A DNA stretch of 64,000 nt from Candidatus Latescibacterota bacterium (GTDB lineage Bacteria; Latescibacterota; UBA2968; UBA8231), in contig CBDFJF010000001.1 in NCBI GenBank assembly GCA_965248265.1, forward strand, positions 192,001 through 256,000. Reading direction: 5' to 3'. Shown piece after piece: positions 2,724 to 37,559 of this stretch (its first letter is position 1; every line of letters starts with the position of its first letter). Position numbers and translations under genes: made by a program. The notes under the pieces were generated by a model, which did not search any database, was not told the DNA's origin, and saw only the letters and a program-made list of their open reading frames with translations.

Positions 2724-2818
2724 TCTGTCTCCTTCTTCCACGCGTGGCAACTTAGCGGCTCCACACAAGAGCCAGACAGGCGTCCAGCGGGGCATCGCTT
2801 CACTACCCTGTGTGTGGA

Positions 2819-3232
2819 TCAATATCCCCCAGTACTCGTTCCCGAAGTCCGGGTCGTGGCGACTGGTCGGCGCGTAATTGACAACGTCCCTTCCATGCCC
2901 TGTGCCCGATGGCCGGGAACGGCGCAGTAGAAGATATAGGTCCCTTCCGAGACGCCGCTCAATTGCGCGCTGGTCGTGTCACCTGCTGGTATATCCACAT
3001 TGACGTTGAGAGCATCGATAGTGAGCGTATGGCCCATATCCGCGCTACTCAATCGTATGGTGACCTCGTCTCCCGGATCAAAGGCAATCCCTCCCGGATT
3101 GAACTGGAACGTACTGGCGGTCATCTCAATGACGCCGTTCGATGGACGGGTTGGCCCGCCGCTATCATCTTCACAGGATGTGAGAAGGCAAGAGGTGAGG
3201 GCGGCGATGAAAACACCTGCGATAGTTTTCAT
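2819..3232 (-). CDS. Cupredoxin (blue copper) lipoprotein
   Basis: Lipobox LTSC; type-1 Cu ligands GHTL...YCAVPGHRAQGM. Confidence 0.85.
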   Translation of the reverse strand: MKTIAGVFIAALTSCLLTSCEDDSGGPTRPSNGVIEMTASTFQFNPGGIAFDPGDEVTIRLSSADMGHTLTIDALNVNVDIPAGDTTSAQLSGVSEGTYIFYCAVPGHRAQGMEGTLSITRRPVATTRTSGTSTGGY

Positions 3233-3404
3233 AATTCCGGATTCTTCACTTTTGTCAAATAGCCACAATCAGAAGGAACCGTGTCACGATCATTCCTCCT
3301 GTGCAGTGATGCTAAGTGGGGGCAGGCGAGAGTTTGATGTGGCGAGGGATGGGCGTCAAGCGTATGTCCGGATAACGAAGGAAGTGCAGAATGGTTGTCC
3401 GAAT

Positions 3405-7353: not shown

Positions 7354-10300
7354 TCATCGCGCCGCCAGCTTTAGTTGTGACTCCTCCAGCCTCCGAACGA
7401 CAGCGGTCAGTGCGTCCAACTGCAGTCGCAACTCATCGTTACTCCGAGCCAACGTTTCCTTTTCGGATCGCAGTTCCGACAACTCAGCCTCCACCTGAGT
7501 CAATTCGGCACTACCAGACGCGGCCTTCTCGTGCTGTTGCTCGATGATCCCTTGCTGTTCCTGAATAGCCTTGACGAGAACAGGGACGAAATCGGAATAG
7601 TAAAGGCCCAGGGTCTGGTCAGGATCGTCGCCGATGTGGACGACCTCGTCGATTACAGTCCGCACCTCCTGGGCGATCAAACCAAGCTTCCTGCCCCGTT
7701 CAGGCCGGTCCTTCCAGGTATAGGAGACAGGGTGCAGACGCATCACTTCGTTGAGCCCATATGGACTGTCCTGGATACTCTCCTTCATCCGGCGATCTGA
7801 CGTGTTCACCGAACCACTAACGGCGAATACGTCCGTCCATCGATTACCCGATGCACCGCAAGAAATTGTGTTGTCAGTGAGCGGCCTGATGTTACCACCG
7901 AAATCGACAATACCAGCACCGAACTGGATGTTATTTCCAGCCGGTTGGATCCAAAGCTTTTTGCTATTCAGCGACTGTATGTAACCACCATTTGCATCAA
8001 CGCCAACGGCTACCTGACTGAGTGCTCCGCCACTCTGTCCGTTAGTCGCCATTATGTGCTGCCCGCTGCCGCCCGGTGTGGCATCTACCTTGGATACCAA
8101 CAGCGGGTGAGATCCGGAAGGACTCGTCGTGCCGATGCTGACGTTGCCACCTGTGGGTTGCAACACTATCTCAGTGCCGCTCTGTGATAGGAGTTCCAAA
8201 TCTCCTGTTGTCCCATCACGTGTTATAGAACCGGATGTTGCGGACGCGAAGAGAAGGGACAGATCCACACCGGCAGACTTCAGCAAAACATTACCAGTCA
8301 CTTCAAGCTTTTCTCCTGGTGCTGTGTTGCCGATGCCGACATCGTTGGCTGACGTGATGCGCATCGCCTCACTGCCACCCGTGTGGAATAGGATGGGAAG
8401 GCTGTTGGATTGAAGATAAAGGGCGGATTCGTCAACAGGTGAATAGAGCCATCCCTGCAGGTTCGCATCCTTCATGACCCGAAAACCACTATTGAGACTA
8501 CCCGCGGATTGAGCCGTGACATCGATATAGGTCGTGGCCGCACCTCCATCCACAACCAGTTCCTCTGCCGGACTCGTCGTGCCGATGCCGACGTTGCCGG
8601 CTGCGCTCACGGTCATCCTCGTCGTCGAGCCCGTCTGAAATTGAATGTCACGGGAGCCCGAGTTGTGTCCGATCTGTAGTCCAGTGGCATCAATGTGATC
8701 GACCGTGCTGGCGAAGCTTGCACCTTCGAGCTTCAGCCCAACGGATCCAGAAAGCACATCTCGGGCGTGTACCCGAGTAGTCGGTGCTGTTGTGCCCACG
8801 CCCACGTTGCCAGCATCGTCCACGACAAGCCGATATGTGGCGACACTCGTCTCGGCCTTATCCCGTACCTGGAAGAGCCACCAGGCGTTCTGCAATGCGG
8901 GGATGGCCGAATAGGCATCGGACCAGACTCCACTTTGCCACTTTATGTTTCCGCTCGTTCTGTCGAAATACTCGATCGTCCCATAATTATTAGTACCGTC
9001 ATCATACCGCATTCGCATCGTGAAGAATGGTCCCAGGTCAACGTCTATTGGAGTAATAGGGCTTGTTGTTCCGATTCCGAGCCCCCCATCCTTCCAGTAC
9101 ATATAGGCTTCCGACAGATCACCTTTCCAAAGTGCCAGGTCGTCTATGTTGTTGCTCTGCTGAAACCGGACTTTGCCCGTTCCCCTTGTGAACGTGAGCT
9201 GATCGCCTCCTGTTCCTTCGGCCACGTGGAGTTTTGCCAACGGCGAAGTAGTGCCTATACCCACGTTGCCATTCACCGTCAGTCCCCCAACTCCTGCGAC
9301 ATCGACAGCACCGTTGTCCGCTGTGATGGTGCGGCCAGCTCCCGCTCCACCTTCGTCGTAGGCTTCGTCAAGTGTATTCTGCGTGTCGGTGTCGGTATTG
9401 GTGTCGGTGGCGTTGAAGGTGAGGGTGTTGCCGGAAGGAGCGATGGCCATGTTAGTACCAGCGGCCAGAGTGACTGCGTCAGTAAGGCTGTTCACCGTCA
9501 GAACCACCGCACCTGCGGCAACATCGCCTGCCACTATGGTCGCATTGGCAATCTCAGCCGAGGTGACCGCACCAGGGGCAATCTTGGCAGTTGTGACAGC
9601 GGCGGCGGCCAGTTCCGTGGTCCCAACTCCACCTGCGGCGATATCGAGGGTTACATCGCCCGTGGTGCCGCCATTGGCAAGGCCCGTACCCGCCGTTACG
9701 CCAGTGATGTCACCCCCGGCGGTGGCGGCAATAGTCAGGGTGTTACCGGCCGGGGTGATGTTGATGTTAGATCCCGCGGCCAGAGTGACGGCATCGGTCA
9801 GGGTGTTGAGAGTGGTGACCACTGCGCCACCTGCTATATCGCCAGCGCCGATGGTCGCATCGAGGATCTTCGCACTCGTCACCGCGTCATTGGCCAGATC
9901 GGCTGTAGCAATGGTGGCGTCCAGGATTTCATCGGTGGCCACAGCGCCTGTGGCAATGTCAGTGGCGACAATGGTTGCGTCGGCGATCTTTGCACTCGTT
10001 ACCGCATCGGGGGCCAGATCAGCCTCCGCAACTGCACCGTCGATGATCTTGGCACCTGTGATCGAGTTGTCTGCTATGTCGCCAGTGCCCACCTCATTTC
10101 CACCGGTGGTCGAGATCGTGATGTTCTGGCCGACTTGAACGATGTCGATGTTGGCACCCTCAAGCAGGGTTACGTCGTTGGTGGCCGAGTTGAGACTCAA
10201 TACCGCCGTGTCCGTGGCCAACTTGGCTGCCGTCACCGAGGCGTCCTGGATCTTGGCAGTCGTTACTGCATCGGCCGCGATCTCTGCCTCGCTCACGGCA

Positions 10301-11141
10301 TCGGCGGCTATCTGCGTCGCCGTTACCGCATCGTCTGCCAGATCAACGGTTGCAATCGTGCCGTCTGCCAGTTTGGCCGAAGTCACCGCGCCATCGGCCA
10401 GGTCAGCAGTACCAATGGCACCGTCGGTGATCTTGGCGGAGGTCACCGCATTGTCAGCCAATTCAGATCCGGCTGTAGTGATCGTAACCGTATTACCGGC
10501 AGTGGCCACCGTGACGTTATCACCACCTGCGATCGTGACCCCGTCGGTGACGTTGTTTACGCTCGTCACTACCGCTCCCGAAGCGATGTCGGCTGAGCCT
10601 TGCTGCCATCGGCGATCTTGGCTGCAGTCACGGCATCATCGGCCAGCGCTTCACCAGTGATCGCTGCATCGGCAATCTTGGCGCTGGTTACTGAGTCTTC
10701 CGCAAGCTGCTCCGTACCCACGGCGTTGGCAGCGATCTTATCCGCAGTCACCGCGCCGTCTTCGACATCCTTGGCATAGAGGCTGTAGGGAGCCGCTACC
10801 AGTGCAATGCGCGGCGACAACTCATCGCCTGCGCCAATCGAGATCCCCAGGAAATAGGCTCGGTCGAAGGGCACCTCATCCAGAGACGCACTCTCGCCCA
10901 GTACCACATCGAAAAGCCCCTTGCTCGTCGTTACCGTCCGCGTCGCCGTCCACACGGCAGCACCCCCTGCGGTCTGCTCGTACAGGCGGAAGGTGATCTC
11001 ATGGTCACCATCTGTGACGACATCGCCCGCGGCATCGCTCAGGTAGCCCATGTAGGAAATGGTCTTGGGCACGGCCTCCTGGGCGTGGGCGGTCGATAGG
11101 GAAATTGCAAGGCAAAGTGAGATGGCAAGCAGGGATTTCAT
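7354..11141 (-). pseudogene. Secreted tail-fibre-like protein with peptidase S74 intramolecular chaperone, split by a 1-bp frameshift near 10600 (ORFs 10569-11144 and 7354-10569)
   Basis: Signal peptide, VPKTISYMGYL N-domain, AVTxAKIADG decapeptide repeats, GNVGIGTTSP repeats, TSDRRMKESI S74 motif and coiled coil; restoring one base joins ...KIADGS to GSADIASGAVVTSVN. Confidence 0.85.
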
Positions 11142-14586: not shown

Positions 14587-17169
14587 TTAGCGGGATCGAG
14601 CGTCGAGTTCTGCCATCCCCTCGCGGAACAGCGCTATCAACCGCGCTCGCACAGCCTCATCCTTGAACACACCGATTTGTTCAGCCCAGGTCACACCACC
14701 CTCCATCTGCGTCAGCAGGTACTCGCCGGCGGCAGGTTCGAAGGTTTCACGCCCACCCACGTCGATGTACACGGGCGATGAGTGCGCCATCACCGGCCCG
14801 GCCCCTGTCCCATGCGGCCCCCAACAGCGCGCCGTGACCCAGCAAGGCGTCTCCGTCTTGAGCTTGTGGTCGAGAACGATTTTTCGCGGGAAATCCGGAT
14901 CAGCCTCCTCGCGCACATCCGGAACGCCGTTGACGACCAGCTCGACCGCACTCAACGGCCATACGCTTTCAGCCGTGGCCTGCACCTCAACCGTGCCGCC
15001 GTTGCCCGGCAGGTGAATCTCCTCACCCATACTGGCACCTTCCACCTGCAGGTCAATCATCGCGCCCGTGCTGGCGAAGGTGTTGCCCCGGCGTACTCCG
15101 CGGCACCAGTTGTCGAAGGTGAATTCCTCATTGCCGTCGAGCTTGGCGTAGGTGCGCGAACAACCCAGGACCCGGTCATTGGACATCTTGTCGGTCCCGC
15201 CGACGATCGGCAGCTTCTGGCCGACATTGAGCCAACGGTAGTAGCCGCGCTCGCCGGCTCCGATGGTTTCTCCCTGCCAGATCCAGCACATCTCGGCCGC
15301 ATCAGCCTGGCCAAGAACAATGTTGGCGGCGTTCTCAAAGTCAGGACTCGGCATGTGGGGCATGATGACGAGTCCCCCCTGGCGCCGGCACTCCTCGGAC
15401 CAATCCGCCATCAAAACTTGAACTTCACCTCCTACCCAATCTTCCTCGGGGCCTCCCGTGCACATCGGTGCGACCATCTCCTTGAGGCCCAGCAGCGAGA
15501 TATGTCCGAGCACGTGCTGGCGGTTTTCCTGGCTGACCCAGATCAGGTGGTCTTCACTCGATGTCGGTGACAGCCCACCCGTGAACTCTTCCCAGCTGGT
15601 GAATAACCTCCCCCACTGGCTCGCCAGCAGGTTGACGACGTTCAGATCTTCGGCCGCCGCTTCAAGATGACTGGATTGGGACGACAGGAAATGCACGTGG
15701 GTGTCGCCGGAATAATAGCCGCGGCTCTTCATGTCGAAGGCCCGCTGCATGCGCAGGGTCAGATTCCGCTGCCCGGGCTTGATCTCCAGCTTCTGCCGTA
15801 GCGGTTCGTACTCGAAGCCTCTGACGACCTCGACGTACGCCTTACCCACCGGCAGTTCGATCTGACAGGTGCCGTCTATGTAGGCGTAGGGTGTGCCCTT
15901 TATGGTGCAGTCGCCGCCCAGATCCTCGAACCATGCCGTGTTGACGTCGGCCTGATGACCGTGCGGCGCCAGATAGGCCCCCGACTCGGAACGGAAGTGC
16001 ACCCGTGATCCCACCGGCTTTCCGGTGTCGGCATCCTCGACCCTCACATGCACCCACTGCTTGCCGCGAACGCCAATGACCTCGATCCGGACCTTGCCCT
16101 GTCGTTCGCTGCCGCTTTCCAGCACGTCTCCCCAGCGAAACTCGGCATCGGCTTCGCCATCGGCCTCGCCCTCAGGTCCTTCATTGATGGACACGCGGCC
16201 TTCCGGCGAAGCGTGCACCTCGGCGTAGCCTCCCTCACGCACCTCCTGCCCCCCGGTCCCGAACCCTTTAACTTCCGTAGTCACGAAATCTTTCCCGGGG
16301 ACAAACAATCGATCCTGACGCACCAGCACTCCGCGATCCACCTTGACCTGTGGGGCCTGAGTACCGTCAGCATCGTCGATGGTGATGGCGATCTCCTTGC
16401 GCGCCGGCCAGTCGAAGGGGTCCTTTTCTTCCTGGCAGATCGTGATCGCACCCAATGCCATCGCCACCATGCCGGTAGCCAGTACCTCAATCTTATCTAT
16501 GATCTTGTCCGTCGGGTTGACCCAGTCTAGGAGCCACCAGCCTTGCAGGCTGCCGCCGTTGAGGGTCGTCGTCCCCACCTGGGTTCGCCCCCAGGGTCCG
16601 GTCATATCGCCGATCGGCACGGAACGGAACTCCCGGCATATGCGGCAGGCGAACGGGTGGTGTCCCCAGCGGATGGAAAAATCATGAATCTCGAAGCGGC
16701 GCCTGAGATTCTGTTCAACACTGGAGCCGTCTTCGAAGTGAATCCGGTACATGCCGACCTGCTGGCCAAACGCGTCAGGGTCATCTGTCGCCGGAGCACA
16801 GGCGTGCGCGAACAACAACCTGCGAGCTCGGTGGCCGACAGAAATCGTAACCGACTCGGGCACACCCTCTATTTCCGCTTCCGCGCCACAAACAGTGACA
16901 TATTTCAGCGAGGCATCATCCGCTGCCCCCTTGAACGGCACCCCCCAAAACAGATTTTCCCCCGACGGCATGCGCTTGAGCTGGGTGTTGTCGGGATCCT
17001 TTCCATCGAAGGGCCACATCCAGCCGTCGCCCGAGCGCACATTGGCGTCGCCGGCATTGCAGGAGTCAGTCAGGTCGAGTGGTTGGAATGGGTCAGCCAA
17101 GTTGTTAACTCCCGTGTGACTCTGATGTTGTGGCGCGACCCGCGTCACAGGTTTCCTCTTCTGGTACAC
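14587..17169 (-). CDS. CehA/McbA-like PHP-fold metallohydrolase with N-terminal beta-domain
   Basis: SGDTHVHF, ENRQHVLGHISL, MPHMP, GGTDKMS, AHSSPVY; start uncertain. Confidence 0.75.
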   Translation of the reverse strand: MYQKRKPVTRVAPQHQSHTGVNNLADPFQPLDLTDSCNAGDANVRSGDGWMWPFDGKDPDNTQLKRMPSGENLFWGVPFKGAADDASLKYVTVCGAEAEIEGVPESVTISVGHRARRLLFAHACAPATDDPDAFGQQVGMYRIHFEDGSSVEQNLRRRFEIHDFSIRWGHHPFACRICREFRSVPIGDMTGPWGRTQVGTTTLNGGSLQGWWLLDWVNPTDKIIDKIEVLATGMVAMALGAITICQEEKDPFDWPARKEIAITIDDADGTQAPQVKVDRGVLVRQDRLFVPGKDFVTTEVKGFGTGGQEVREGGYAEVHASPEGRVSINEGPEGEADGEADAEFRWGDVLESGSERQGKVRIEVIGVRGKQWVHVRVEDADTGKPVGSRVHFRSESGAYLAPHGHQADVNTAWFEDLGGDCTIKGTPYAYIDGTCQIELPVGKAYVEVVRGFEYEPLRQKLEIKPGQRNLTLRMQRAFDMKSRGYYSGDTHVHFLSSQSSHLEAAAEDLNVVNLLASQWGRLFTSWEEFTGGLSPTSSEDHLIWVSQENRQHVLGHISLLGLKEMVAPMCTGGPEEDWVGGEVQVLMADWSEECRRQGGLVIMPHMPSPDFENAANIVLGQADAAEMCWIWQGETIGAGERGYYRWLNVGQKLPIVGGTDKMSNDRVLGCSRTYAKLDGNEEFTFDNWCRGVRRGNTFASTGAMIDLQVEGASMGEEIHLPGNGGTVEVQATAESVWPLSAVELVVNGVPDVREEADPDFPRKIVLDHKLKTETPCWVTARCWGPHGTGAGPVMAHSSPVYIDVGGRETFEPAAGEYLLTQMEGGVTWAEQIGVFKDEAVRARLIALFREGMAELDARSR

Positions 17170-17246
17170 AAAGTAACCAAGACCCCTCGCGCACCAAAGA
17201 CCGCTCAGTTTGCCGGTTGTGAGGACCGGGAATACATTCGATAACT

Positions 17247-18617
17247 ATGTCAAACAGCATGCCGAACAGCCCTCTGACTCGCGGTGATTTACCGCCGGAG
17301 TACGGTCTTCTGGTCCTGCAGGCCGAGCGACCCGAGCAGCAGATCTACGTCCGTTATCTGATGTTGATTCTCAACTACCGCTTCGGACTGGACCTGATCA
17401 CGGTCAAGAGTCATGTGGAGGCGTTTTCGGCGGCGCGCAAGTACGGCCGCAAGATCCGCTGCACCGTCATCGTCCAGGACACCAAGATCGACACCAAATC
17501 GACGATCGCGGCCCTGAGCCTCGAAGACGCCATCCCGTTGATTGCCGTACTGCCTGCCGGCTTGATCGAATCACACCAGGATCTCGTCCAACGCATGACC
17601 AACGTCCATTTTTGTGCCTGGGAAACGGCGTTGGGAAAATCGGACGCCGCCCTTCTGCCGCTGATCTTGAAGACCTTCGCCGCCAACGGCATCGGTGAGC
17701 TCTTTGGTGAAGACGCACAGCAATTGCCGTTCGAGGAAATGCAGGCTCGCGTCGAACGCCGTCTGCGCAACCTGAAAACACTGCCGACCCTGCCCGAAAT
17801 CGCCGTCCGCATCATGACCATGATCCAGGATCCCAGACCCACAGTCGAGGATCTTGAAGAGGTACTGACCAGTGACGCTGCCATCGTCCACAAGCTGCTT
17901 CAGGTCGTCAACTCCCCCGTCTTCGCCGGCAGCGGGCACAAGGGAAGTTGGTCACTGGGGGAAGCTATCGTCCGGCTCGGACGCAACAAGGTCGGTGCCA
18001 TCGCGCAGCAGATCAAAATGATGAACTCACTGGTCAAGCCGGAGCAGAGCCTTTTCGACCTGCGCCGTTTCTGGGAGCACTCGGTCGGCTGCGCCCTGGT
18101 GGCCGACCGGCTTTACCGAGACAAGCTCCTGAACCTCAAGGAGGAGATCGAGTTCAACGACTACTGGATCGGCGGCCTGATGCACGATTCCGGCAAGGTC
18201 GTACTGGGCTTCTTTTTTTGGGAGCACTTCGAGGAGATTCTCACCCACATGGGCAAGGAAGAAACCTCCTTTCGCCAGGCCGAGAAAGATTTGTGTGAGG
18301 TTGCTAATCATGAATTCCTGGGTCAGCTGCTATTGCTCAAATCGAACGTTGGCGAGCAGCTGGTGCGCGCCGTCGGCGAGCATCACTCAGGCAGCAAGGA
18401 TCCCAGTGACCTCGTCTGTCTCCTGCACGTAGCCAACAACCTGTGCAAGGACCTGGATAAGGGATACCTGCAGGAAGAGAGCAGCCTCTATCGGGTGGAG
18501 GTGCTGCAGAAACTCGGCATCACCCGGGAGGACATGGAGCGGATCCGTGAAGAACTCGGAGAGCGGATGGTGAAGGAGATCGACGATCTCGTCGATCGCT
18601 GCGTGCAGCCGGTTTGA
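17247..18617 (+). CDS. HDOD domain signalling protein
   Basis: LPTLPEIA, LLQVVNS, FWEHSVG, GLMHDSGK, NHEFLG. Confidence 0.88.
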   Translation: MSNSMPNSPLTRGDLPPEYGLLVLQAERPEQQIYVRYLMLILNYRFGLDLITVKSHVEAFSAARKYGRKIRCTVIVQDTKIDTKSTIAALSLEDAIPLIAVLPAGLIESHQDLVQRMTNVHFCAWETALGKSDAALLPLILKTFAANGIGELFGEDAQQLPFEEMQARVERRLRNLKTLPTLPEIAVRIMTMIQDPRPTVEDLEEVLTSDAAIVHKLLQVVNSPVFAGSGHKGSWSLGEAIVRLGRNKVGAIAQQIKMMNSLVKPEQSLFDLRRFWEHSVGCALVADRLYRDKLLNLKEEIEFNDYWIGGLMHDSGKVVLGFFFWEHFEEILTHMGKEETSFRQAEKDLCEVANHEFLGQLLLLKSNVGEQLVRAVGEHHSGSKDPSDLVCLLHVANNLCKDLDKGYLQEESSLYRVEVLQKLGITREDMERIREELGERMVKEIDDLVDRCVQPV

Positions 18618-18629
18618 GGCGCTACCGGT

Positions 18630-19595
18630 CTACTGGCCAAGGATCTCTGCGTAACGACTCAGCGTTAGATTGCCCCCACTCAGAACACCGACAACCTTTT
18701 TCCCGCACAGTCTTTCCTTCCCCAGCTCGAACGCCGCCGCCAGCGACACCGCACCAGCGCCTTCGGCGACCAGGCGGGCACTCTGGGCCAGCCGCCGCAC
18801 GGCCACGTCGATGGCATCGTCGCCGACCAGGACGAACTCATCCAGCAGCTCCCACATCATCGTCATCGTCATCTCGAAGGGCACCCGTGTTGCCAGGCCT
18901 TCACTGGTGGTGTCCGCATCAGCCTCGACGTCGAGCCGACGCTCCTTCCAGGCCATCCAGGCACCGGGTGCCTGTTTCGACTGTGCGCCGATTACGGTTA
19001 CATCCGGGTGCGTTTCTTTGACCGCCAGACACAAACCGCTCACACCGCTCCCCCCTCCCACCGGGCCGATGATGATGTCGACGTCCGGCAGTTGCTCGAG
19101 AATCTCCAGTCCCATCGTGCCCACACCCGCGATCAGGCGAGGCTCGTTTGCCGAGTGTACGTAGCGCCTGCCCTCGGCACGGGCCACGCGCTCGACCTCT
19201 ACCCGCGCCTCGTCAAAATCACGACCGTACAGTCTGACATCCGCGCCCAATTCCCGCATCGCCGCCAGCTTGCGTTCGTTGACGCGCTCAGCCGGAGCAT
19301 AGATGATGACGGGCACACCGAAGAGCCCGCCAGCCATGGCCATCGATTGGCCGTGATTGCCGGTGCTGGCACTGATTACACCTGCTGCCTTTTCCTCATC
19401 GCTGAGACGACCAATGAGGTTGACACCGCCCCGGACCTTGAAGGCGCCGATCGGTTGCAGGTTCTCGCACTTGATGTAATAGTCGCAACCCAAAGCGTGC
19501 GAGAGCGACTCACTCTTTATTAGAGGAGTTGGTGGTAGGTAAGGTGTGATCAGCTCGCGCGCCGAAACCACATCTGCGTAGGTAGGTCGACTCAT
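18630..19595 (-). CDS. PLP-dependent threonine/serine dehydratase family protein (no regulatory domain)
   Basis: KCENLQPIGAFKVRGG, ASTGNHG, PVGGGSG, LSGGN; ATGA overlap with the upstream gene. Confidence 0.9.
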   Translation of the reverse strand: MSRPTYADVVSARELITPYLPPTPLIKSESLSHALGCDYYIKCENLQPIGAFKVRGGVNLIGRLSDEEKAAGVISASTGNHGQSMAMAGGLFGVPVIIYAPAERVNERKLAAMRELGADVRLYGRDFDEARVEVERVARAEGRRYVHSANEPRLIAGVGTMGLEILEQLPDVDIIIGPVGGGSGVSGLCLAVKETHPDVTVIGAQSKQAPGAWMAWKERRLDVEADADTTSEGLATRVPFEMTMTMMWELLDEFVLVGDDAIDVAVRRLAQSARLVAEGAGAVSLAAAFELGKERLCGKKVVGVLSGGNLTLSRYAEILGQ

Positions 19596-20332
19596 CTGGA
19601 TCCCGCTCGGATGCGCTCTATAGCTGTGCTCAGGACAGCGGCGTTGTCGCAACGCTCCACAATCGATAACAATTCGGCTTCCGCTGTCTCCGCTATGGCT
19701 TCAACCTCGGCCACCAGTACGGGCAGAGCCCGGGTTACGTTGTCGACGATCGTGATCGTGGCCTGCTGCGCCGTCCGCGACAGCGGGTTGAGGTCGACGG
19801 TGATGACTTCCTTGCCTGCCTTCACCAGCGCTCCGCAGCGATCGCCGTCTTCCAACGGGACGAACACCACGTCGGCGATCGCCAGACCGTCGGGGTGCAC
19901 GAAGCGGCGGTTGGAGTCGATGTCGTCGAGGACCACTTGCGGGTCGGGAAGCAGAACGACCTCGGCTCCCGCCTGCTTCAAATGCTCGGCAATGGCGCGC
20001 TCGCGTTCCTCTGAGGCATGGAAAATATTGACCTCAATCGGGGCCGGCACGATCCGGCTCAACTGCACGATGTCATCCGGCACCAATGCGGCCGTGTTGC
20101 CGTTTATTGATAGAACTGGGTGCTTTGCCGTAAGCAATCGTGCGGCGGCAGCGCGGATGGCCTGGCTGGCAAAGGCATGCGTCTGTTCTCCCAACAGGTA
20201 GTCGAAGGCTTCACCGCGCCCGTGTGCGATGAGCCCATGCGGTGAAGTGATGCCGCTTTCCACACCATTGACCATGGCGTCACGCAGGCGCAGCGAGGTA
20301 TAGCGCGGGTGGCTTGTTGGTACGTCTGTCAC
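19592..20332 (-). CDS. Archaeal-type phosphopantothenate synthetase (4-phosphopantoate--beta-alanine ligase, PPS)
   Basis: SHPRY.SL, GLIAHGRGEAFDYLLGE, SINGNTAAL, VPLEDGDR, DLNPLSR, TIVDNV. Confidence 0.93.
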   Translation of the reverse strand: MTDVPTSHPRYTSLRLRDAMVNGVESGITSPHGLIAHGRGEAFDYLLGEQTHAFASQAIRAAAARLLTAKHPVLSINGNTAALVPDDIVQLSRIVPAPIEVNIFHASEERERAIAEHLKQAGAEVVLLPDPQVVLDDIDSNRRFVHPDGLAIADVVFVPLEDGDRCGALVKAGKEVITVDLNPLSRTAQQATITIVDNVTRALPVLVAEVEAIAETAEAELLSIVERCDNAAVLSTAIERIRAGSR

Positions 20333-21177
20333 AGCAACCCACCCCGTCGCCTGGCCAGAGCTGTCTCCTGGCAGCCCTCGAATCGGCTGGTGCTGAAAAC
20401 GGCATTGCCCAGCATGATCATGGACGCCTCTCCCCCAGTTGATTCGATATTCTCGATGAGTCCACGCACTCGATCATCTCGCAGGAGTCCACTGCCTTCG
20501 GCGAACTGCCGGCACACCCGGATGCACTCGTTCATCTCGACGCGCTCCCTCACGCTCAATTCTCCGAGCGCTGTCAGTGCCACGTCCGCGGCGGCATTGA
20601 TGCGAGCCGCCTGCTCCGTGTCGGAGAGCACGTCGCGAGTTCGAATCGGACCGAAGTAACGGTAGAAAATCGCTTTCCCCTCCTCTATCGGCATCGGTCG
20701 GGCGGCGAGTGGTTGACCCGGAGTCAGCTTGACCAGGCAACCGCCATGATACTGCGCACACACATCCCCGAGTCCGGTGAGATTCTCCACTTCGGCGACA
20801 TGCGCCATCATGGCGAGATCCTCTTCCCCATAACCCAGGTCGAGCAACGCGTTGAGCGCGTAGGCACAGGCCAGTGCCGAAGCCCCGCTGAGGCCGAAAC
20901 CGGAACTCAGCGGCAGAGCAGACTCTATCCGGACCGCAACAGGCAGCGGCGTCAGTTTCTCTATCAGGTTGTTTACGGTCGGGAACTCTATGATCTCTCC
21001 GTTGAAGTAAACGCTCGAATCACTGCCGCTATCCTCCTGGCTGGCGACCTCGACTTCAACCCCGTCGCGAACGGTGAATCCCAGACCCAGAGAATGCATC
21101 TGAGCGGGAGACTTATGCGGGATGATCTTGAACACCCCGGACATGTTCCCCGGCGCGAAGGCAGCTACCGTCTTCAT
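20329..21177 (-). CDS. Archaeal-type pantoate kinase (PoK, GHMP family)
   Basis: AFAPGNMSGVF, SLGLGF, LPLSSGFGLSGA, AHVAEVENLTGLGDV, MIMLGNAVF; overlaps the PPS start. Confidence 0.9.
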   Translation of the reverse strand: MKTVAAFAPGNMSGVFKIIPHKSPAQMHSLGLGFTVRDGVEVEVASQEDSGSDSSVYFNGEIIEFPTVNNLIEKLTPLPVAVRIESALPLSSGFGLSGASALACAYALNALLDLGYGEEDLAMMAHVAEVENLTGLGDVCAQYHGGCLVKLTPGQPLAARPMPIEEGKAIFYRYFGPIRTRDVLSDTEQAARINAAADVALTALGELSVRERVEMNECIRVCRQFAEGSGLLRDDRVRGLIENIESTGGEASMIMLGNAVFSTSRFEGCQETALARRRGGLL

Positions 21178-21273
21178 CGAATGAACCAGGCCTGATACGA
21201 GAAACAGGGGTAATGAAAAATGGCGTAATGAACAATGGGACAATCAGCGATAAGGTAGGTAGGACACGACGCC

Positions 21274-21870
21274 TTACCCACGTCCAGCGACAATCTGCTC
21301 ATGCCGGTAGCAATCGATGGTGTGGTCGTTGACGATGCCCGTCGCCTGCATCAGGGCATAGCAGATCGTCGGGCCCACGAAGGTGAAGTCTCTTTTCTTC
21401 AAATCTTTGCTGATGGTCTCCGCCAGCGGCGTCAGAGCGGGAACATCGCTCATCCCACGCCACCTGTTCTGAATTGGCGTTCCATCCACGAAAGCCCAGA
21501 AATAGGCATCGAAGCTGCCGAATTCCCGCTGCACCTCCAGAAAAGCCCTGGCATTCCTGACCGTACCTTGGACCTTGAGCCGGTTGCGGATGATGCCCTC
21601 GTCTTTGAGCAAGCGAGCAATCTTGCGCTTGTCATACCGGGCAACCTTGCTCGCATCGAAGCCATCCAACAGCCGCCGATAGTTCTCTCGCTTCTTGAGA
21701 ACCGTCGACCAGCTCAGTCCCGCCTGCGCTCCTTCCAACACGATAAACTCGAACCACACAGTGTCGTCATGTACAGGTACGCCCCACTCATCATCGTGGT
21801 AAGCCACGTACTGATCGTCCGTCCCCTTTGCCCATTCGCAGCGAACGAGTTCCCGCTGGCCCCGTGCCAT
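21274..21870 (-). CDS. tag: DNA-3-methyladenine glycosylase I
   Basis: RCEWA, YHDDEWG, LEGAQAGLSW, IIRNRLK, FVGPTICYALMQATGIVNDH. Confidence 0.95.
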   Translation of the reverse strand: MARGQRELVRCEWAKGTDDQYVAYHDDEWGVPVHDDTVWFEFIVLEGAQAGLSWSTVLKKRENYRRLLDGFDASKVARYDKRKIARLLKDEGIIRNRLKVQGTVRNARAFLEVQREFGSFDAYFWAFVDGTPIQNRWRGMSDVPALTPLAETISKDLKKRDFTFVGPTICYALMQATGIVNDHTIDCYRHEQIVAGRG

Positions 21871-21892
21871 CAGCGGTGTTCCTCGAGAGCCA

Positions 21893-22426
21893 TCAGCGGT
21901 GTTCCTCCAGATGTCGTCTCAAATCGAATAGATAGGCTTCGAGCGTGGCCGTGTGCCCGATGAAGACGGCGGCGACGAAGCGAAATATTGGATCGTAGAC
22001 CTCGCCCTCTTCCACGATGCGGATGTAGGTGCCCGGGCCGTCATCGTCGAGTTCGAAGGTCCAGGTGCCGGCAAACGGCAAATCATCTTGAGCGATCCTG
22101 GTGACCAACCGGCGCGGTGGGTCGACCTCGACAGTCGCCAGCGTCAATGAGTCTCCCCAGGCATCAACCTCGACCCAGGTGGTGACACTGTCCCCTTTTG
22201 ACGAGCGGACGACGACGGCGGCTACATCACTGCGCCATCGAGAGTGTTGCGGCCAATCCGTGATCGTCTGCCACACTCGCTCCCTCGTGGCAGGTAGTTC
22301 CCCGCGCACGGCTGCGACGTGGGCAACCGGCAGTATCGATCCGACGACGTAGGCGATGGCAATCAGGATCAGCAGTGCGCTGCCGAGCGTGAGGGTTACG
22401 ACCTTCATCACCTGCCTGCCAGTCAT
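21893..22426 (-). CDS. SRPBCC/polyketide cyclase family protein with N-terminal TM
   Basis: VWQTITD, WRSDV, PFAGTWTFEL, EEGEVYDPIFRF. Confidence 0.82.
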   Translation of the reverse strand: MTGRQVMKVVTLTLGSALLILIAIAYVVGSILPVAHVAAVRGELPATRERVWQTITDWPQHSRWRSDVAAVVVRSSKGDSVTTWVEVDAWGDSLTLATVEVDPPRRLVTRIAQDDLPFAGTWTFELDDDGPGTYIRIVEEGEVYDPIFRFVAAVFIGHTATLEAYLFDLRRHLEEHR

Positions 22427-22435
22427 GCAAGACCC

Positions 22436-22888
22436 TCAAGCTCCAATCGCGTTGGCCAACCTCGACAGAGAACTCTCCCAGCGCTCCTCCATTTCAGCGG
22501 CGCCTGCCGGGTCCGTGAAGCCGGTATGTGACAGTTCGATTTCCGTCAACGAGCCGCGATCGTGAAACTCGACGCTGACCGTCGTCTCCTTCTCACTGGG
22601 CGGCTTGACACCCTCCCAGCGGTCCGTCAAGACTATTTTGAACCGCCAGGTCATGACCAGCCGCAACGGCCCGTCCACCTCGGTGAAACTGCCGTCCGCC
22701 CAAAAATGGCGCCCCGCTGTCGTCGCGTGGTAGCGGACGACTCCGTTCAAAGTGAGATCCATGTCGATCCGCGTGTTAGTGGAATCGGGCGGCGGCCACC
22801 ATTTGACGATCTCATCCGGATCCGTCCATGCCCGAAACACTCGATAGCGAGGAGCAGAGATCAGTTGTTTCAGAGTTACGTCCGTCAC
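22436..22888 (-). CDS. SRPBCC (AHSA1-like) domain protein
   Basis: APRYRVFRAWTDP, RLVMTW, TVSVEF, HTGF. Confidence 0.85.
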   Translation of the reverse strand: MTDVTLKQLISAPRYRVFRAWTDPDEIVKWWPPPDSTNTRIDMDLTLNGVVRYHATTAGRHFWADGSFTEVDGPLRLVMTWRFKIVLTDRWEGVKPPSEKETTVSVEFHDRGSLTEIELSHTGFTDPAGAAEMEERWESSLSRLANAIGA

Positions 22889-23913
22889 TGCGCACTATCC
22901 CCCAGATCGCCGCCGCAGGCTCGGATCAGCGTTTCCTGGGTCAGCAGATCGTGCTCGGGAGAGTAGATTGGCTCGCGTTCGCCGCGGATGATCTGGATGA
23001 ATTCCTCGTGATCGCCGACATACCGCGGCCTATCGGTTACCTCGATCGACTGCCAACCGGTACAGTAGCCAGCCTTGGGTAAGCGCAGACTCATCTCCAA
23101 CTTGGGAGGCTCGATCGGTTCGAGGATGACACTGCCATCTTCCCCATGGACCTCGACCCGACGATGAGGTCCCGCGTCGCACTCCATCGAGGTGGTCTCG
23201 ATGACGGCCATGGCCCCATGGTCGTCGAACTCCAGCATGACCGAGGCGTTGTCGACTCCCGGAGCTATGTCTTTGAAACCCTTCGCGTCGGAGCGCAGAA
23301 ACGAGGTAATCTTGTCAGCCCGGCCAAACATGGTGACGGCCTGATCGAAGAGGTGACAGGCCTCCTCCTGCATGATACCGCCTGGATAGCGATCCACGTG
23401 GTTGCGGTGGAAGTACTCCGGGGTGCTGCCGGCCCGGAAGCGCGCGAAGAACACCCGTCCGAGCAACCCCTCCTTCACCTTTTCCTGGATGAATTGCAGG
23501 CCCGGATTGAAGCGCCACTGATAACCCATCTGCACGCACAACCCGCGCTTGGCGGCCAGATCCAGCAGGGATTGCAGCTCCGGCAATGAGGTTCCCGGCG
23601 GCTTGTCCAAGTGGACATGCTTGCCGGCTTCCAGCGCGAGCCGTGCCCACTCCACGCACTCCCACGGCCAGGTCTCGATGTAAACGGCGGCGATGTCGTC
23701 ATCGGACAGAATCTCATCGACGGACTGGAACCAGTGAACGTCGGCATACTCCTCACGGCCGCGACGAGCATCCCACATCTCACGTTCGGGCTCAAAAATG
23801 CCGCAGAGCTCGACCTTCAATCGCGGCCACAACTCACGAGCCGCTTTGTCTACCGTCTTCGTCGCGTGCGTGTGCGCGATGCCGATCTGCCCCAGCCGCA
23901 CAGAATCACTCAC
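22885..23913 (-). CDS. Gfo/Idh/MocA family oxidoreductase
   Basis: QIGIAHTHA, GKHVHLDKPPG, GYQWRFNP, GGIMQEEACH. Confidence 0.9.
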   Translation of the reverse strand: MSDSVRLGQIGIAHTHATKTVDKAARELWPRLKVELCGIFEPEREMWDARRGREEYADVHWFQSVDEILSDDDIAAVYIETWPWECVEWARLALEAGKHVHLDKPPGTSLPELQSLLDLAAKRGLCVQMGYQWRFNPGLQFIQEKVKEGLLGRVFFARFRAGSTPEYFHRNHVDRYPGGIMQEEACHLFDQAVTMFGRADKITSFLRSDAKGFKDIAPGVDNASVMLEFDDHGAMAVIETTSMECDAGPHRRVEVHGEDGSVILEPIEPPKLEMSLRLPKAGYCTGWQSIEVTDRPRYVGDHEEFIQIIRGEREPIYSPEHDLLTQETLIRACGGDLGDSAQ

Positions 23914-23929
23914 AATGCTTGGCTGCCTT

Positions 23930-24676
23930 CTACTTGCGTGCCTTCTTCAGAAAGTCGGCTGCCCCATCCGACAGCCATCCTTGCGCCGGGGTCATCAGGA
24001 AGCGGATGCCCTGGTCAACCAGCGCCTCCGCCGTGTTGTTCCAGGCCAGCGCCCCGGCGGTGCGCCCTGAATCCACGATCTTGCGCAACGCTTTCTCCAG
24101 GACTTCGACCGCCTCGGGATGATTCGTTTTACCCGTGTGCCCCATGGAACTGGCCAGATCCGATGGGGCCACGAAGAACACGTCGATGTGGTCTACTGTG
24201 AGAATCTCATCCAGGTTTTGCACGGCGACGATGTCTTCGATCAGGACGATGAGCAGGGTCTCGTCGTTGGCGACGGTAAAGTAGTCCTCGACGCCGAAAC
24301 CCTGACGGCCACCGAACATGCCGCGCTTGCCGATAGGCCCGAACTTACCCCCCTCAACCACGTTGGCTGCTTCTTCTTTGGTGTTGACGTGCGGTACCAC
24401 GATCCCCTGCGCGCCAAGGTCCATCGTGCGGTAGATGAGATTCTGATCATTGCGGTTGACCCGCACGATGGAGGTCATGCCCCAGATGTCGCATGCACGC
24501 GTTAGGTTGCCGATTTCTGATGGTTCGGCGGCACCGTGTTCGCCCTCGATCCATATACCGTCGAAATCGTTGGGGCCGAAGCCTTCAACATCGTTTGCGT
24601 CCGTGATACCTGTGACAGTGCAGGTTACTTCCCCCGCATCCAGTTTTCGTTTTACTCGATTCGGTCTGATCTGCAT
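23930..24676 (-). CDS. HpcH/HpaI aldolase family protein
   Basis: WIEGEHG, MDLGAQGIVVPHV, LIED, FVAPSDLA. Confidence 0.9.
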   Translation of the reverse strand: MQIRPNRVKRKLDAGEVTCTVTGITDANDVEGFGPNDFDGIWIEGEHGAAEPSEIGNLTRACDIWGMTSIVRVNRNDQNLIYRTMDLGAQGIVVPHVNTKEEAANVVEGGKFGPIGKRGMFGGRQGFGVEDYFTVANDETLLIVLIEDIVAVQNLDEILTVDHIDVFFVAPSDLASSMGHTGKTNHPEAVEVLEKALRKIVDSGRTAGALAWNNTAEALVDQGIRFLMTPAQGWLSDGAADFLKKARK

Positions 24677-34123: not shown

Positions 34124-35122
34124 ATGGCCAATCAGAGCAGCGAGCGCTATCTGGTGACCGGCGCCATGGGATGCGTTGGAGCCTGGGCGATCAAACGCCT
34201 GCTTGATGAAGAATTGCATGTCTCGTCCTACGATCTGTCCGCAGACCGCTACAGACTCGAGACCATCATGGATGATGACGCCATTGCCTCCATCAACTTC
34301 ATTTCCGGCGACATCACCGATCTCGATGCGTTTTCGAGAGCGGTTAACGACAACGATATCACCCATATCCTCCATCTGGCGGCCATGCAGGTTCCGTTGG
34401 TGCGTGCCGATCCGGTACTCGGGGCACGCGTGAACCTGGTTGGCACCACCGTCGTGTTCGAAACGGCCAGGCAACTCCAGGAACTGGTGCAAAACGTCGT
34501 GTTCGCCAGTTCGTTCGGCGTCTACGGCGAGCCGGAGGCCTATCCACCTGGACCACTGGCACACGATGCCAAGCTGTTGCCGCCCACCCTCTACGGCGTG
34601 TTCAAGCAATGCAACGAAGGCACCGCGAGTGTGTACTGGCGCGAGAACGCCCTCCACAGCACTGGGATACGGCCATGCGTCGTCTATGGTCCAGGCCGCG
34701 ATCAAGGCTGGACTTCGACACCTACCAAAGCAATGCTGGCAGCTGCCCTCGGCCGGCCATACCACATCACCTACGGTGGCACCCTCGTCTATCACCATGC
34801 CGATGATGTTGCCGCCGCCTTGATCACGGCGTCCAGAACCAGGCTCGAAGGCGCCCCCGTGTTCAACATCGGCGGCAGCACCGTGTCCATGGAAGAGATC
34901 GTCGCCGCCATCGACGAGGTCGTGCCGGGATCCGCCGCCTCCATCAGCTTCGACCCGACACCGCTACCGCATCCTTCCAGCGCCGATGACAGCGCCCTCA
35001 ACCAGGCCCTCGGCCCGCTCGCCTACCGACCGTTGGTCCAGGGCGTTCGCGACACCATCGCCACCTTTCGCAAGGCCATCGACAGAGGCCGCCTCGATAT
35101 CGAGCGTGCCCTCAGGGCCTAG
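34124..35122 (+). CDS. NAD-dependent epimerase/dehydratase
   Basis: VTGAMGCVG, HLAA, YGVFK, VYGPGRD. Confidence 0.9.
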   Translation: MANQSSERYLVTGAMGCVGAWAIKRLLDEELHVSSYDLSADRYRLETIMDDDAIASINFISGDITDLDAFSRAVNDNDITHILHLAAMQVPLVRADPVLGARVNLVGTTVVFETARQLQELVQNVVFASSFGVYGEPEAYPPGPLAHDAKLLPPTLYGVFKQCNEGTASVYWRENALHSTGIRPCVVYGPGRDQGWTSTPTKAMLAAALGRPYHITYGGTLVYHHADDVAAALITASRTRLEGAPVFNIGGSTVSMEEIVAAIDEVVPGSAASISFDPTPLPHPSSADDSALNQALGPLAYRPLVQGVRDTIATFRKAIDRGRLDIERALRA

Positions 35123-37559
35123 CGATCGAGTCTCCACCATGGCGGGCGTCGCCAGCGGCCATCTGTGAAACGGATTCGAGCAGTTGCTGCCGCGTTCGAG
35201 TAAACCGCTCTGGATCGCGAGTGAAACCGGTGACCCCTTGACCCACCACTTCGTCACAGAGCCGATCCGCGCGCCCGGCATCATGGCCGGCCAACATTCG
35301 CAGTAACTCCAGATCTTCGATCCCATCCCTGATGTTTTCCAGCCGTATGCTCGTCAGGGGTCCGTCAGGACCGGGGTACAACAGGCAACCGTCGCCGTTG
35401 GCCGTGCCGAAGGAGGCTGGGTTCCACCCCCCCACCTTGTTGCCCCGTTCCGGCGACTGCAGCGGCCGTTCATTTCCGGGCCAGCGATTCAGCGTGTAGT
35501 AGAGGAAGCCGTCCACCCGCTGGCGATGCGACATCCACCACAACAGCCGCGCCTCCAGCGCCGGGTACTCGATGAACCAGTTCGCGTGCGGATGGGTCGG
35601 CGCGATGCAGATGTACCACCACACCTGTGCGCCCGCGGCGCGGGCAGCGGTGGCGGCAGCGGGATCGTGGTGGGCAGTCAAGGGGACCCATACATCGACG
35701 ACCTCGTCCAGGCCTGTATCCATACCGAGGCTGGGATCAGCCGCCGTCGTCGCCGTCTTCAACCCGGGATAGCGCTGCTTGAAAAAAGCGAAGACCTCCT
35801 TCAGTTCGGAGAACTCGTCAACGCGCGCTTCATCAAAACCGTACAGAAGCGCCTGCGGCAACAATCCGAGGCGATCGTACTCGTTGACGTAGGGGGCGAG
35901 GGTTTCGGCGATCTTGTCTAATTCTTCGGCGTCATACTCCCTATCTCCCTCCACGTGCAGTGCCACGAAACGGTTGAGTTGGCCACGCTCGCGCGATGCC
36001 AACAAAACCTCCGGGGCAGGGGGCGTACCGGCGTAGATATTCGTCGCATTGAGACGGTGCGCTCCAATAAACTGCCGATAGAGGGGCAGTAGCTTTTCAG
36101 CATGGCTGTCACCATACACTTGCGACAGCGAGCTCTCGTAGAAGGAGAACGCCGTCTGTACGGTCGTGACAGCGGGTACGGCGACCGGGTACACATGCAC
36201 CTCAAGCGGTATGGCGAGTACGTCCGATCGTCCGTCGACGTGCACCTGGATCTCGCCTCGGTAAAAACCGGGTCGCTGAGTTATCGCTGACTCCAGCGCG
36301 ATCCACACTGGCGCATTCTCGCCCGGCTCGACGATAAGGCGAGCGCCAGGCACCAGCGGATCAGGCCACCATCCGCTGTAGTCGACGTTGTATTCCTCCG
36401 GTTCGTGCGCATCCACGTACAGCACCCGGCTCACGGATATCGCTCCCTCCGCAAACACGGCGCCCCCGTCGACGTGCTCGATGGCTCCGACGGTGACGTC
36501 GATGCCGGCGAGTGTGTCCTTCGTGCGGAACACCACTTGAAAGGCCTCCGTCTCGCCCTGACCCATGGCCAGCTGCAGCGCAGTCTCCCCGGATTCTGTT
36601 TTGCCCGGTTTGAATACAGCCCGGTCCGCTGCCGGGAGGTCGTGCAGGAGCACCTTGCGTGTAGAGGGCTCCGCCCACCCCACTATCGAAGAGAATCCCT
36701 CACCGGGTCCGTCAGCACTGTCCACGAATAGTGACCCGAGGGAGCGCACGGTGGTGGAGCCGTGATGCCCGAGCAGGCGCAGGGTAACGGTGTGGCGTCC
36801 AGGAACAGACGTTGACAGTACTTCGCGCAGATGCAGCCTGGTACCGTTGCCGGTGTATGTGGCAACTACGTGCCCGGCTGTATCAGTGACGGCAACACGC
36901 CACGATGCCCGCTTGTTGAAACGGGCTCTGACCACCAGGCTGCCGTGCTGGAAGGGATCGGTAGTGAGTGCGGCTTCTTCAAGGGCGACCGACGCCGCCT
37001 CCAACCGCAAGTCATCGAGATCGATTTCGTAATCCGCCGACGGTTGGCTCATGTAGAAATCGACTCGTCGCACGTGTTCGGTGTCGATGTCGTCCGCCAA
37101 GCCCGCCAGTGAAATCTCGCAGGTACCCCACTTATTTGATTCGATCGGAATGATGCGGATGGCCCGGCGGCCGTCACCATCGTCGATGCGCAATTTCAGG
37201 TGGACGACCCTCGGGTGGCGGGCTCGGGCCTCGAAGCGCAGGACCGAATAGAGGCTCCAATCGCTGGTGCGGAACTGCCCGTCACCATGCTCCAGGATCA
37301 CTGCCGGCCACTTGCCTCGCCATGGCGACCACCGCGGGTACACCAGACGGGCAGCCCGTGCCGAGCCAGCAGGATCCGGAGACTGGCGGTCGAACACATT
37401 GAACTCGGCCTGACGCGCTGACCAGTCATCGTCAGCGTCGTGCCTTTCGAAGTCCTCGAGAACTACGGATGCCACTCGCTGATCGCTGCTGCCGGCGCTC
37501 GCCGTCCCAAAACCGAGCAGGAAGACAGCGCCAGTGGCGAGCGCGTTCGGCAGGTTCAC
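35112..37559 (-). CDS. Secreted DUF4091/GH123-like glycoside hydrolase with N-terminal binding domain
   Basis: GETEAFQV, WWPDPL, YGFDE, WWYIC, GDGCLLYPG, SIRLENIRDGIED. Confidence 0.8.
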   Translation of the reverse strand: MNLPNALATGAVFLLGFGTASAGSSDQRVASVVLEDFERHDADDDWSARQAEFNVFDRQSPDPAGSARAARLVYPRWSPWRGKWPAVILEHGDGQFRTSDWSLYSVLRFEARARHPRVVHLKLRIDDGDGRRAIRIIPIESNKWGTCEISLAGLADDIDTEHVRRVDFYMSQPSADYEIDLDDLRLEAASVALEEAALTTDPFQHGSLVVRARFNKRASWRVAVTDTAGHVVATYTGNGTRLHLREVLSTSVPGRHTVTLRLLGHHGSTTVRSLGSLFVDSADGPGEGFSSIVGWAEPSTRKVLLHDLPAADRAVFKPGKTESGETALQLAMGQGETEAFQVVFRTKDTLAGIDVTVGAIEHVDGGAVFAEGAISVSRVLYVDAHEPEEYNVDYSGWWPDPLVPGARLIVEPGENAPVWIALESAITQRPGFYRGEIQVHVDGRSDVLAIPLEVHVYPVAVPAVTTVQTAFSFYESSLSQVYGDSHAEKLLPLYRQFIGAHRLNATNIYAGTPPAPEVLLASRERGQLNRFVALHVEGDREYDAEELDKIAETLAPYVNEYDRLGLLPQALLYGFDEARVDEFSELKEVFAFFKQRYPGLKTATTAADPSLGMDTGLDEVVDVWVPLTAHHDPAAATAARAAGAQVWWYICIAPTHPHANWFIEYPALEARLLWWMSHRQRVDGFLYYTLNRWPGNERPLQSPERGNKVGGWNPASFGTANGDGCLLYPGPDGPLTSIRLENIRDGIEDLELLRMLAGHDAGRADRLCDEVVGQGVTGFTRDPERFTRTRQQLLESVSQMAAGDARHGGDSIARP

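Follow-up and report, generated by a model that had tools for sequence, protein, structure and literature searches.

The order of the two steps leading to phosphopantothenate, a precursor of coenzyme A (CoA), has served to mark archaea off from bacteria. The two archaeal enzymes, a pantoate kinase (PoK) and a phosphopantothenate synthetase (PPS; 4-phosphopantoate--beta-alanine ligase), were reportedly established in archaea by Yokooji et al. in 2009 and in later work by the same group. In Thermococcus kodakarensis we take them to be TK2141 (PoK; PDB 6jbc) and TK1686 (PPS; PDB 3wdk), presumably encoded by unlinked genes. A passage in Shimosaka et al. (2019) calls both enzymes unique to archaea (PMC6650551). 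Thomes and Lescure (2020) described an exception tied to sponge symbiosis, with PoK in 31 and PPS in 34 of 38 Entoporibacteria; Pelagiporibacteria have PanC and a type III pantothenate kinase (PanK) instead, and coexistence of the two routes is not known (PMC7883664). Here we analyze a predicted PoK/PPS gene pair at positions 19592 to 21177 of a 64,000-nucleotide stretch (the window) from a bacterium deposited as Candidatus Latescibacterota (contig CBDFJF010000001.1, positions 192,001 to 256,000).

The original prediction for this locus had described bacterial PoK/PPS as rarely reported, naming Ca. Poribacteria, and Thomes and Lescure 2020 was indeed the only such paper that we found (PMC7883664). 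Our full-text literature searches returned no paper placing PoK/PPS in Latescibacterota, Gemmatimonadota, or bacteria beyond Poribacteria. Database annotations already name such proteins in metagenome-assembled genomes (MAGs) labelled Latescibacteria, Gemmatimonadetes, and Planctomycetota. As set out below, it is very likely that the two genes form a translationally coupled operon, probably the sole route from pantoate to 4'-phosphopantothenate in this organism, and that the pair replaced PanC and PanK anciently, within a bacterial clade of archaeal origin.

Identity of the predicted PPS and PoK proteins

The second gene of the pair (19592-20332, minus strand; GTG start, 246 residues) is by family a full-length phosphopantothenate synthetase, with a predicted ligase activity. 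Its product matches the whole of Pfam profile PF02006 (229.3 bits, positions 1-176 of 176), scores 340.5 bits against NCBIfam NF010324 (cut-off 227), and narrowly passes the archaeal equivalog model NF041123 (303.1 bits; cut-off 300). Its alignment with the T. kodakarensis PPS 3wdk runs end to end (E = 4.8e-69, residues 1-242 against 1-243). When it is aligned with 28 proteins representing 50%-identity clusters, all 18 invariant and 23 nearly invariant columns are kept. A cluster look-up of its closest relatives includes proteins at 84-94% identity; identity to bacterial homologs, taken from the best tblastn segment, is 59-65%. Fused forms of PPS exist, the homologs P0158 (529 residues) and P0166 (521 residues) having about 280 extra C-terminal residues.

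The first gene, as listed, is an open reading frame (ORF) at 20329-21243 on the minus strand, reaching a TTG codon at 21243. We took the ATG at 21177 as its start because in the alignment it falls at residue 3 of the solved pantoate kinase, which gives a gene at 20329-21177 and a protein of 282 residues. Family models and predicted fold identify this protein as a putative pantoate kinase-type GHMP kinase, closer to characterized PoK than to other GHMP kinases. It matches the GHMP kinase N domain (PF00288) with 52.8 bits, and its best NCBIfam families are two pantoate-kinase models, NF040725 and NF041122 (165.6 and 79.8 bits), which, judging from their names, describe methanogen-type and Thermoplasmata-type enzymes. 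The next family, homoserine kinase, scores 34.1 bits, more than 130 bits below the best pantoate-kinase model. The closest solved relative by sequence is likewise the pantoate kinase 6jbc (E = 9.4e-18), followed by a mevalonate kinase (8.2e-06). An AlphaFold model built from an alignment of 29 homologs had a predicted local distance difference test (pLDDT) score of 96.8, and its top Foldseek hit was again 6jbc (E = 1.8e-24, template modeling [TM] scores of 0.84/0.81, 26% identity), with a homoserine kinase second (2.9e-14, TM 0.66).

Nineteen PoK columns are invariant among the 29 bacterial and archaeal homologs. The catalytic and pantoate-binding residues of the Thermococcus enzyme we take to be S28, S104, H131, E134, D143, R155, and T186; at these positions the window protein has, in the alignment with 6jbc, S29, S97, H126, E129, D138, K150 (for R155), and T180. 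None of S29, S97, H126, E129, and T180 varies among the 29 homologs. The protein is 55-62% identical to bacterial homologs, compared with 37-45% to the nearest archaeal-labelled contigs.

The two genes overlap. At their junction (...CTGTGACAGAC...), the PoK stop codon TGA and the PPS start codon GTG share GTGA, a 4-nt overlap at 20332-20329. The coordinates, gene content, and overlap that had been claimed for 19592-21177 agree with what we found.

CoA synthesis in the window's genome

The genome to which the window belongs (G000) measures 7.32 Mb in two contigs and is rated 92.3% complete; a bacterial 16S rRNA lies on the window's own contig. A check for panC and coaA/coaX had been proposed with the original prediction, and it returned nothing credible: profile searches of this genome gave no match to PanC or to type III PanK (CoaX), and the type I PanK model (CoaA) scored no higher than 31.8 bits against a cut-off of 235. 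PanB (288.5 bits) and the DFP domain of CoaBC (232.9 bits) are present on the other contig, and the genome also has three KPR-like ApbA_C matches and a bacterial CoaE (125.1 bits). Since PanB, KPR-like genes, CoaBC, and CoaE were all found, the cell can make pantoate and use 4'-phosphopantothenate, and PoK and PPS are the sole candidates found for the steps in between. Their presence, with no credible match to PanC or to type III or type I PanK, fits a replacement of the bacterial enzymes.

In the route that we favor, the GHMP kinase would phosphorylate D-pantoate with ATP, PPS would ligate 4-phosphopantoate to beta-alanine with ATP, and the bacterial-type CoaBC and CoaE would take 4'-phosphopantothenate on to CoA. 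The pair would presumably be essential to the cell.

Distribution of the two routes

Among the 41 nearest genomes, G000 included, the same 17 hold both PoK and PPS and the same 23 hold both PanC and CoaX. Both sets occur together in none, and a single genome, G005 (90% complete), lacks all four genes, so that the routes are strictly complementary in 40 of the 41. In the other three families of the class, all 16 genomes have PanC and CoaX. Across the phylum, PPS was detected in 33 of 168 species genomes: G000 itself, 31 of the 75 others of its family, the single genome of family f13, and none of the 91 in the remaining twelve families. The f13 match (G076, C45:9585-10106) is the sole one outside the window's family among these 168. 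As a control, PF02006 gave a match in 4/4 archaeal and 0/10 bacterial genomes.

Outside the phylum, a scan in which each species was represented by one genome returned at least 589 PPS relatives, of which the best 80 were examined. Their labels are archaeal in 56 cases, Poribacteria in 11, and other bacteria in 13, the last comprising Gammaproteobacteria, Dehalococcoidia, Verrucomicrobiota, and Acidobacteriota (two each) and Gemmatimonadaceae, Methylomirabilia, Gottesmanbacteria, Cloacimonadota, and "uncultured bacterium" (one each). Within these 80, PoK lies immediately upstream of PPS at 5/11 Poribacteria loci and 4/13 other bacterial loci, and at the Gottesmanbacteria locus a short ORF stands between the two. 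Five genomes were checked for a nonadjacent PoK, and four had one elsewhere: two Poribacteria chromosomes, a Dehalococcoidia chromosome, and a Verrucomicrobiales MAG. In the fifth, a 9.5-Mb Acidobacteriota MAG that has PPS, none was found at E = 1e-10.

PanC and CoaX had no match in four of five PPS-bearing genomes of other labels, namely, the Poribacteria, Gammaproteobacteria, and Dehalococcoidia chromosomes and the Gemmatimonadaceae-labelled MAG. The fifth, the Methylomirabilia-labelled MAG G044 (the genome of locus L036), has CoaX (247 bits) and a PanC in three frame-shifted pieces. This represents either coexistence of the routes while PanC decays or a binning or assembly artifact. The PoK-PPS pair of G044 is on an 8.6-kb contig (intervals noted for this genome, C84:3898-4564 and C1:39274-39888).

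Overall, the archaeal-type route is real and probably functional. Several points weigh against it. PoK falls short of both pantoate-kinase equivalog cut-offs, with 165.6 bits where 380 and 79.8 bits where 500 would be needed. The genome being 92% complete, a missing match is no proof of absence, and the blank search for type II PanK (Fumble) is uninformative, since it was silent in all control genomes too. The downstream CoA steps checked were CoaBC and CoaE, with CoaD not searched. Finally, the genome gave no match to PanD or to the group II pyridoxal phosphate (PLP) decarboxylases (PF00282), leaving no beta-alanine source found, other beta-alanine routes or uptake not having been searched. 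The beta-alanine gap concerns the pathway and leaves the identity of PoK and PPS untouched. The relative G002, unlike G000, has PF00282 matches.

The subthreshold PoK scores and the missing beta-alanine source, together with a coupled downstream enzyme of the PALP family without assigned role (see below), would suit a reading in which the genes are real and do another job, as a GHMP kinase and an ATP-grasp-like ligase with other substrates, CoA precursors being drawn from the surroundings or a host. We consider this unlikely. Without a PanK, pantothenate or pantetheine would be unusable, and the retention of PanB and CoaBC is sensible only if pantoate becomes phosphopantothenate. A different job would also sit poorly with the strict complementarity of PoK/PPS and PanC/CoaX, with a PPS that passes its equivalog cut-off, and with the preservation in the window proteins of columns that are invariant in archaeal and bacterial homologs alike.

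Host lineage

Searching with the RpoB of G000 gave, among the matches listed, at least 120 relatives at 80-98% identity. Nine of the matches listed are labelled, four as "Candidatus Latescibacterota bacterium," three as "Gemmatimonadetes bacterium," and two as "bacterium," and no Poribacteria label occurs among them. RpoB identity is 78-87% within the window's family and 68-69% to other families of the class. It is 80-83% to MAGs labelled Latescibacterota or Gemmatimonadetes, 83% to the Gemmatimonadaceae-labelled MAG, 60% to the Methylomirabilia MAG, 56% to the Poribacteria-labelled chromosome and also to the "Gammaproteobacteria" chromosome, and 52-56% to the Dehalococcoidia chromosome. A poribacterial identity of the genome is ruled out by these RpoB comparisons.

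One close relative (L032) is labelled Gemmatimonadaceae. The Gemmatimonadota label was set aside in favor of Latescibacterota: the PanC proteins of two family members show a tree distance of zero to database proteins that carry a Latescibacteria/Latescibacterota label, the phylum comprises only 168 species genomes in the collection searched, and a published study reports NCBI Gemmatimonadota genomes reclassified as Latescibacterota by GTDB-Tk (PMC10581226). The organism thus appears to be a member of a Latescibacterota-like lineage, the phylum name following the submitters' labels. In two genomes of genus g19 of the sister family, the RpoB match contains one in-frame TAG (G033:C1:4528895-4532650 and G038:C198:26515-30270).

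Origin and age of the pair

A PPS tree (96 rows, quick method) contains one clade, with a support of 91 in the SH-like approximate likelihood ratio test (SH-aLRT), that unites the window's family (all 16 rows) and the Poribacteria (all 11) with 11 further bacterial rows and 2 rows labelled Nanoarchaeota; the deeper branches of the tree are weak. The PoK tree (58 rows, quick method) has 26 bacterial rows in one clade (99). A larger clade of 33 rows (99) encloses it, adding one contig labelled Gottesmanbacteria and six with Nanoarchaeia, Nanoarchaeota, or Methanosarcinales labels, and stands apart from the remaining archaeal PoKs. With methanogens as the root, the concatenated PoK-PPS tree (39 rows, 528 columns, careful method) recovers a bacterial clade of 25 rows (100/99), which joins a pair of archaeal-labelled contigs, L034 and L027 (100/99), and the Gottesmanbacteria row in a clade with support 95/94. 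The bacterial PoK-PPS clade is accordingly placed inside archaeal diversity, the outcome of the phylogeny that had been suggested as a check, and this nesting among archaeal sequences supports an archaeal origin of the pair.

Within the bacterial clade of the concatenated tree, the window groups with family members G007, G019, and G017 and with L032 (95/85), and the Poribacteria come out as a clade of their own (97/93) that joins the Methylomirabilia row and the family members G010 and G003 with support 89/92. Monophyly of the family's PoK-PPS sequences appeared in 0 of 200 bootstrap trees and, with a log-likelihood 30 lower, was not rejected at 0.05 by the approximately unbiased (AU) test (p = 0.056). 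The nesting of Poribacteria among family sequences hints at a direction of exchange between the two and is not significant.

A tree of the hosts was obtained from RpoB (33 rows, quick method, LG+G4). It unites the family with support 100. PoK/PPS is the route of the earliest family branch (G012, G023) and of most others; the seven genomes that use PanC/CoaX group together (93) inside the family, below a branch with support 96. Two changes of the route trait are needed on this tree. G007, G019, G017, and L032 share one 100-supported subclade with the window, and the groups common to the PoK-PPS and RpoB trees are G008/G021, G002/G018, G012/G023, G010/G003, G017/L032, and the window's subclade. 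The nested position of the PanC/CoaX users would imply either that they reverted to the bacterial enzymes or that both routes coexisted for long and were then sorted. The best named hits of the PanC of G009, one of these family members, carry Latescibacterota and Gemmatimonadetes labels, the same as the RpoB hits described above; in the PanC tree, a family clade, a same-class clade, and outsiders (KSB1, deltaproteobacterial) meet in an unresolved fork. The PanC of G014 (C12:48612-49424, L149) is 38.6% identical to that of G009, compared with 58-66% for other family members, and sits on a very long branch; it may have a different origin.

The GC content of PoK and PPS is 0.60 and 0.62, and that at third codon positions (GC3) is 0.70 and 0.72; 15 other window genes span a range that includes these values. 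The equality of GC3 with the neighbors indicates that the pair is old in this genome and no recent import. Its occurrence in 31 of 75 other family species, shallow branching congruent with RpoB, host-like composition, and bacterial nearest relatives together would place the inter-domain step at or before the base of the multiphylum bacterial clade. We infer that the pair is a long-standing resident of the family, inherited mostly vertically since an archaeal transfer that predated the family radiation. The clade of archaeal origin would then have been present early in the Latescibacterota-like family, where the pair replaced PanC and PanK, and this clade is represented as well in Poribacteria and among MAGs bearing several other phylum labels.

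The original prediction had proposed an inter-domain transfer replacing the bacterial entry steps of CoA synthesis. The archaeal source suggested by the trees and the replacement suggested by the lack of PanC/PanK matches stand; a recent event in this genome does not. That the pair came directly and recently from an archaeon into this particular genome might be argued from the archaeal origin of the protein family (compare the PF02006 controls) and from the fact that the nearest outgroups are archaeal-labelled contigs. It is nevertheless highly improbable: PPS is 59-65% identical to bacterial homologs, PoK is 55-62% identical to them against 37-45% to the nearest archaeal-labelled contigs, 31 of 75 other family species share the pair, its shallow topology follows RpoB, its GC3 is host-like, and the scanned flanking genes include no mobile-element families.

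The nearest nonbacterial relatives come from small archaeal bins (L026, L027, L033, L034, and L037). Ribosomal protein S8e, an archaeal protein, was found in four of the five, which have sizes of 1.1-1.8 Mb, and the archaeal nature of the bins is taken from this and from the submitters' labels. L027 and L034 have panB, coaBC, PoK, and PPS in a row. On L033, a 675-residue ORF (1968-3995, plus strand) fuses CoaBC (Flavoprotein and DFP domains) to PoK (GHMP domain), on a contig that also encodes a CDC48-type ATPase; a 666-residue ORF at the same position of L026 (1912-3912, plus strand) suggests, from position and length, the same CoaBC-PoK fusion.

A fuller history can be sketched tentatively, as one that we find quite possible and stop short of calling probable. 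One bacterial PoK-PPS cassette would have arisen a single time, from a panB-coaBC-PoK-PPS cluster in archaea with small genomes, and would have displaced PanC/PanK under at least seven bacterial phylum labels. The route would be ancestral in the Latescibacterota-like family, the PanC/CoaX subclade having reverted or long harbored both routes, and Poribacteria may have their copy from this family.

Integrity of the locus and neighboring genes

Contigs from the Logan assemblies of four sequencing runs tile positions 16000-24000 of the window with zero differences. One of them (3,455 nt, run X1) covers 18149-21603, and with it both borders of the pair, at 0 differences and a depth of about 16, equal to that of the flanking contigs. 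The four runs represent one sample, possibly the source of the window itself, so that they provide a second assembler and no independent sample. The pair is also present in single-contig assemblies of the relatives G002, G008, G015, G017, and G018. A chimeric contig at this locus, the possibility raised against the original prediction, is not borne out, given the host-like GC3 and the Logan contig across both borders. That archaeal DNA was joined into a bacterial contig during assembly or binning is the least credible of the alternatives: the genome is from an uncultured source and the read-level check drew on runs of a single sample, and set against this are the uniform composition, the border-crossing contig at even depth, the single-contig assemblies of five relatives, and a downstream gene that is syntenic in G011, G015, and G019.

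That downstream gene (18630-19595, minus strand) encodes a PLP-dependent threonine/serine dehydratase-like protein of the PALP family (PF00291, 256 bits) that stays below all NCBIfam equivalog cut-offs. Its ATG (19595) overlaps the PPS stop codon as ATGA. In G011, G015, and G019 a homolog is the next gene after PPS; in L032 the distance downstream is about 1.8 kb. The gene is likely an operon partner of PoK/PPS. PALP homologs near PPS are confined to the window's RpoB subclade (G011, G015, G019, and L032).

Upstream, a 96-nt spacer (21178-21273, minus strand) separates the stop codon of a Tag glycosylase gene from the PoK start and is presumed to hold a promoter or ribosome-binding site. A sigma-70 consensus scan gave no minus-strand site in this spacer or near the operon, and in the promoter and terminator consensus scan sites were no commoner than in shuffles.

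The pair is embedded among bacterial genes, as had been noted originally. An HDOD protein and the Tag glycosylase stand beside it, with SRPBCC/AHSA1 proteins, oxidoreductases, and an aldolase as further neighbors, and elsewhere in the window there are a TonB-dependent receptor, a type IX secretion system (T9SS) sorting-domain protein, and PAS histidine kinases, all on the contig with the bacterial 16S rRNA. No integrase or transposase family was present among the scanned flanking genes. Three long minus-strand ORFs drew blanks in family searches: 14587-17169 (860 residues) had no Pfam match at the default threshold, and 7354-10569 (1,071 residues) and 35112-37559 (815 residues) had no NCBIfam match at 1e-10.

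Comparison with known systems

Like the bacterial PanC plus CoaX/CoaA route, the predicted PoK/PPS route would convert pantoate, beta-alanine, and 2 ATP into 4'-phosphopantothenate; unlike it, it would do so with the steps in reverse order and with unrelated proteins. This has a consequence for annotation, as pipelines that look only for PanC/PanK would call such bacteria pantothenate or CoA auxotrophs.

With respect to the enzymes of T. kodakarensis, the window PPS aligns end to end with 3wdk and the modelled PoK has the same fold as 6jbc (TM 0.84). The window pair differs in that its genes overlap and reside in a bacterial genome and in that its PoK is only 26% identical. The small archaeal MAGs, with their Nanoarchaeia, Nanoarchaeota, and Methanosarcinales labels, are the nearest nonbacterial relatives in the PoK and concatenated trees and share the PoK-then-PPS order with overlapping genes. 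In L027 and L034, panB and coaBC stand just upstream of the pair, whereas in the window's genome both are on the other contig.

The closest parallel is that of Entoporibacteria, where the same two enzymes replace PanC and type III PanK beside bacterial CoaBC and CoaE. There too, relatives retain PanC and PanK without PoK/PPS, and Poribacteria-labelled sequences belong to the same bacterial PoK-PPS clade as the window pair. The differences lie in the host lineage, the Poribacteria-labelled RpoB being 56% identical compared with 78-87% inside the window's family, and in the three KPR-like (ApbA_C) matches found here, no KPR having been reported in Poribacteria (PMC7883664). The swap described here is therefore of the same kind as that published in 2020 for Poribacteria, and the kind itself is not new. 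What the present locus adds to that report is a second host phylum, with the same PoK/PPS swap in another phylum-level lineage, and a single family in which, from genus to genus, the two routes exclude each other. There is also a hint of a shared, spreading bacterial cassette with possible reversal; the searches suggest that such a cassette is present across many lineages and that, in this family, it and PanC/PanK are mutually exclusive at genus level. The Latescibacterota-like family offers a tractable case of nonorthologous displacement in an essential pathway, possibly with reversal.

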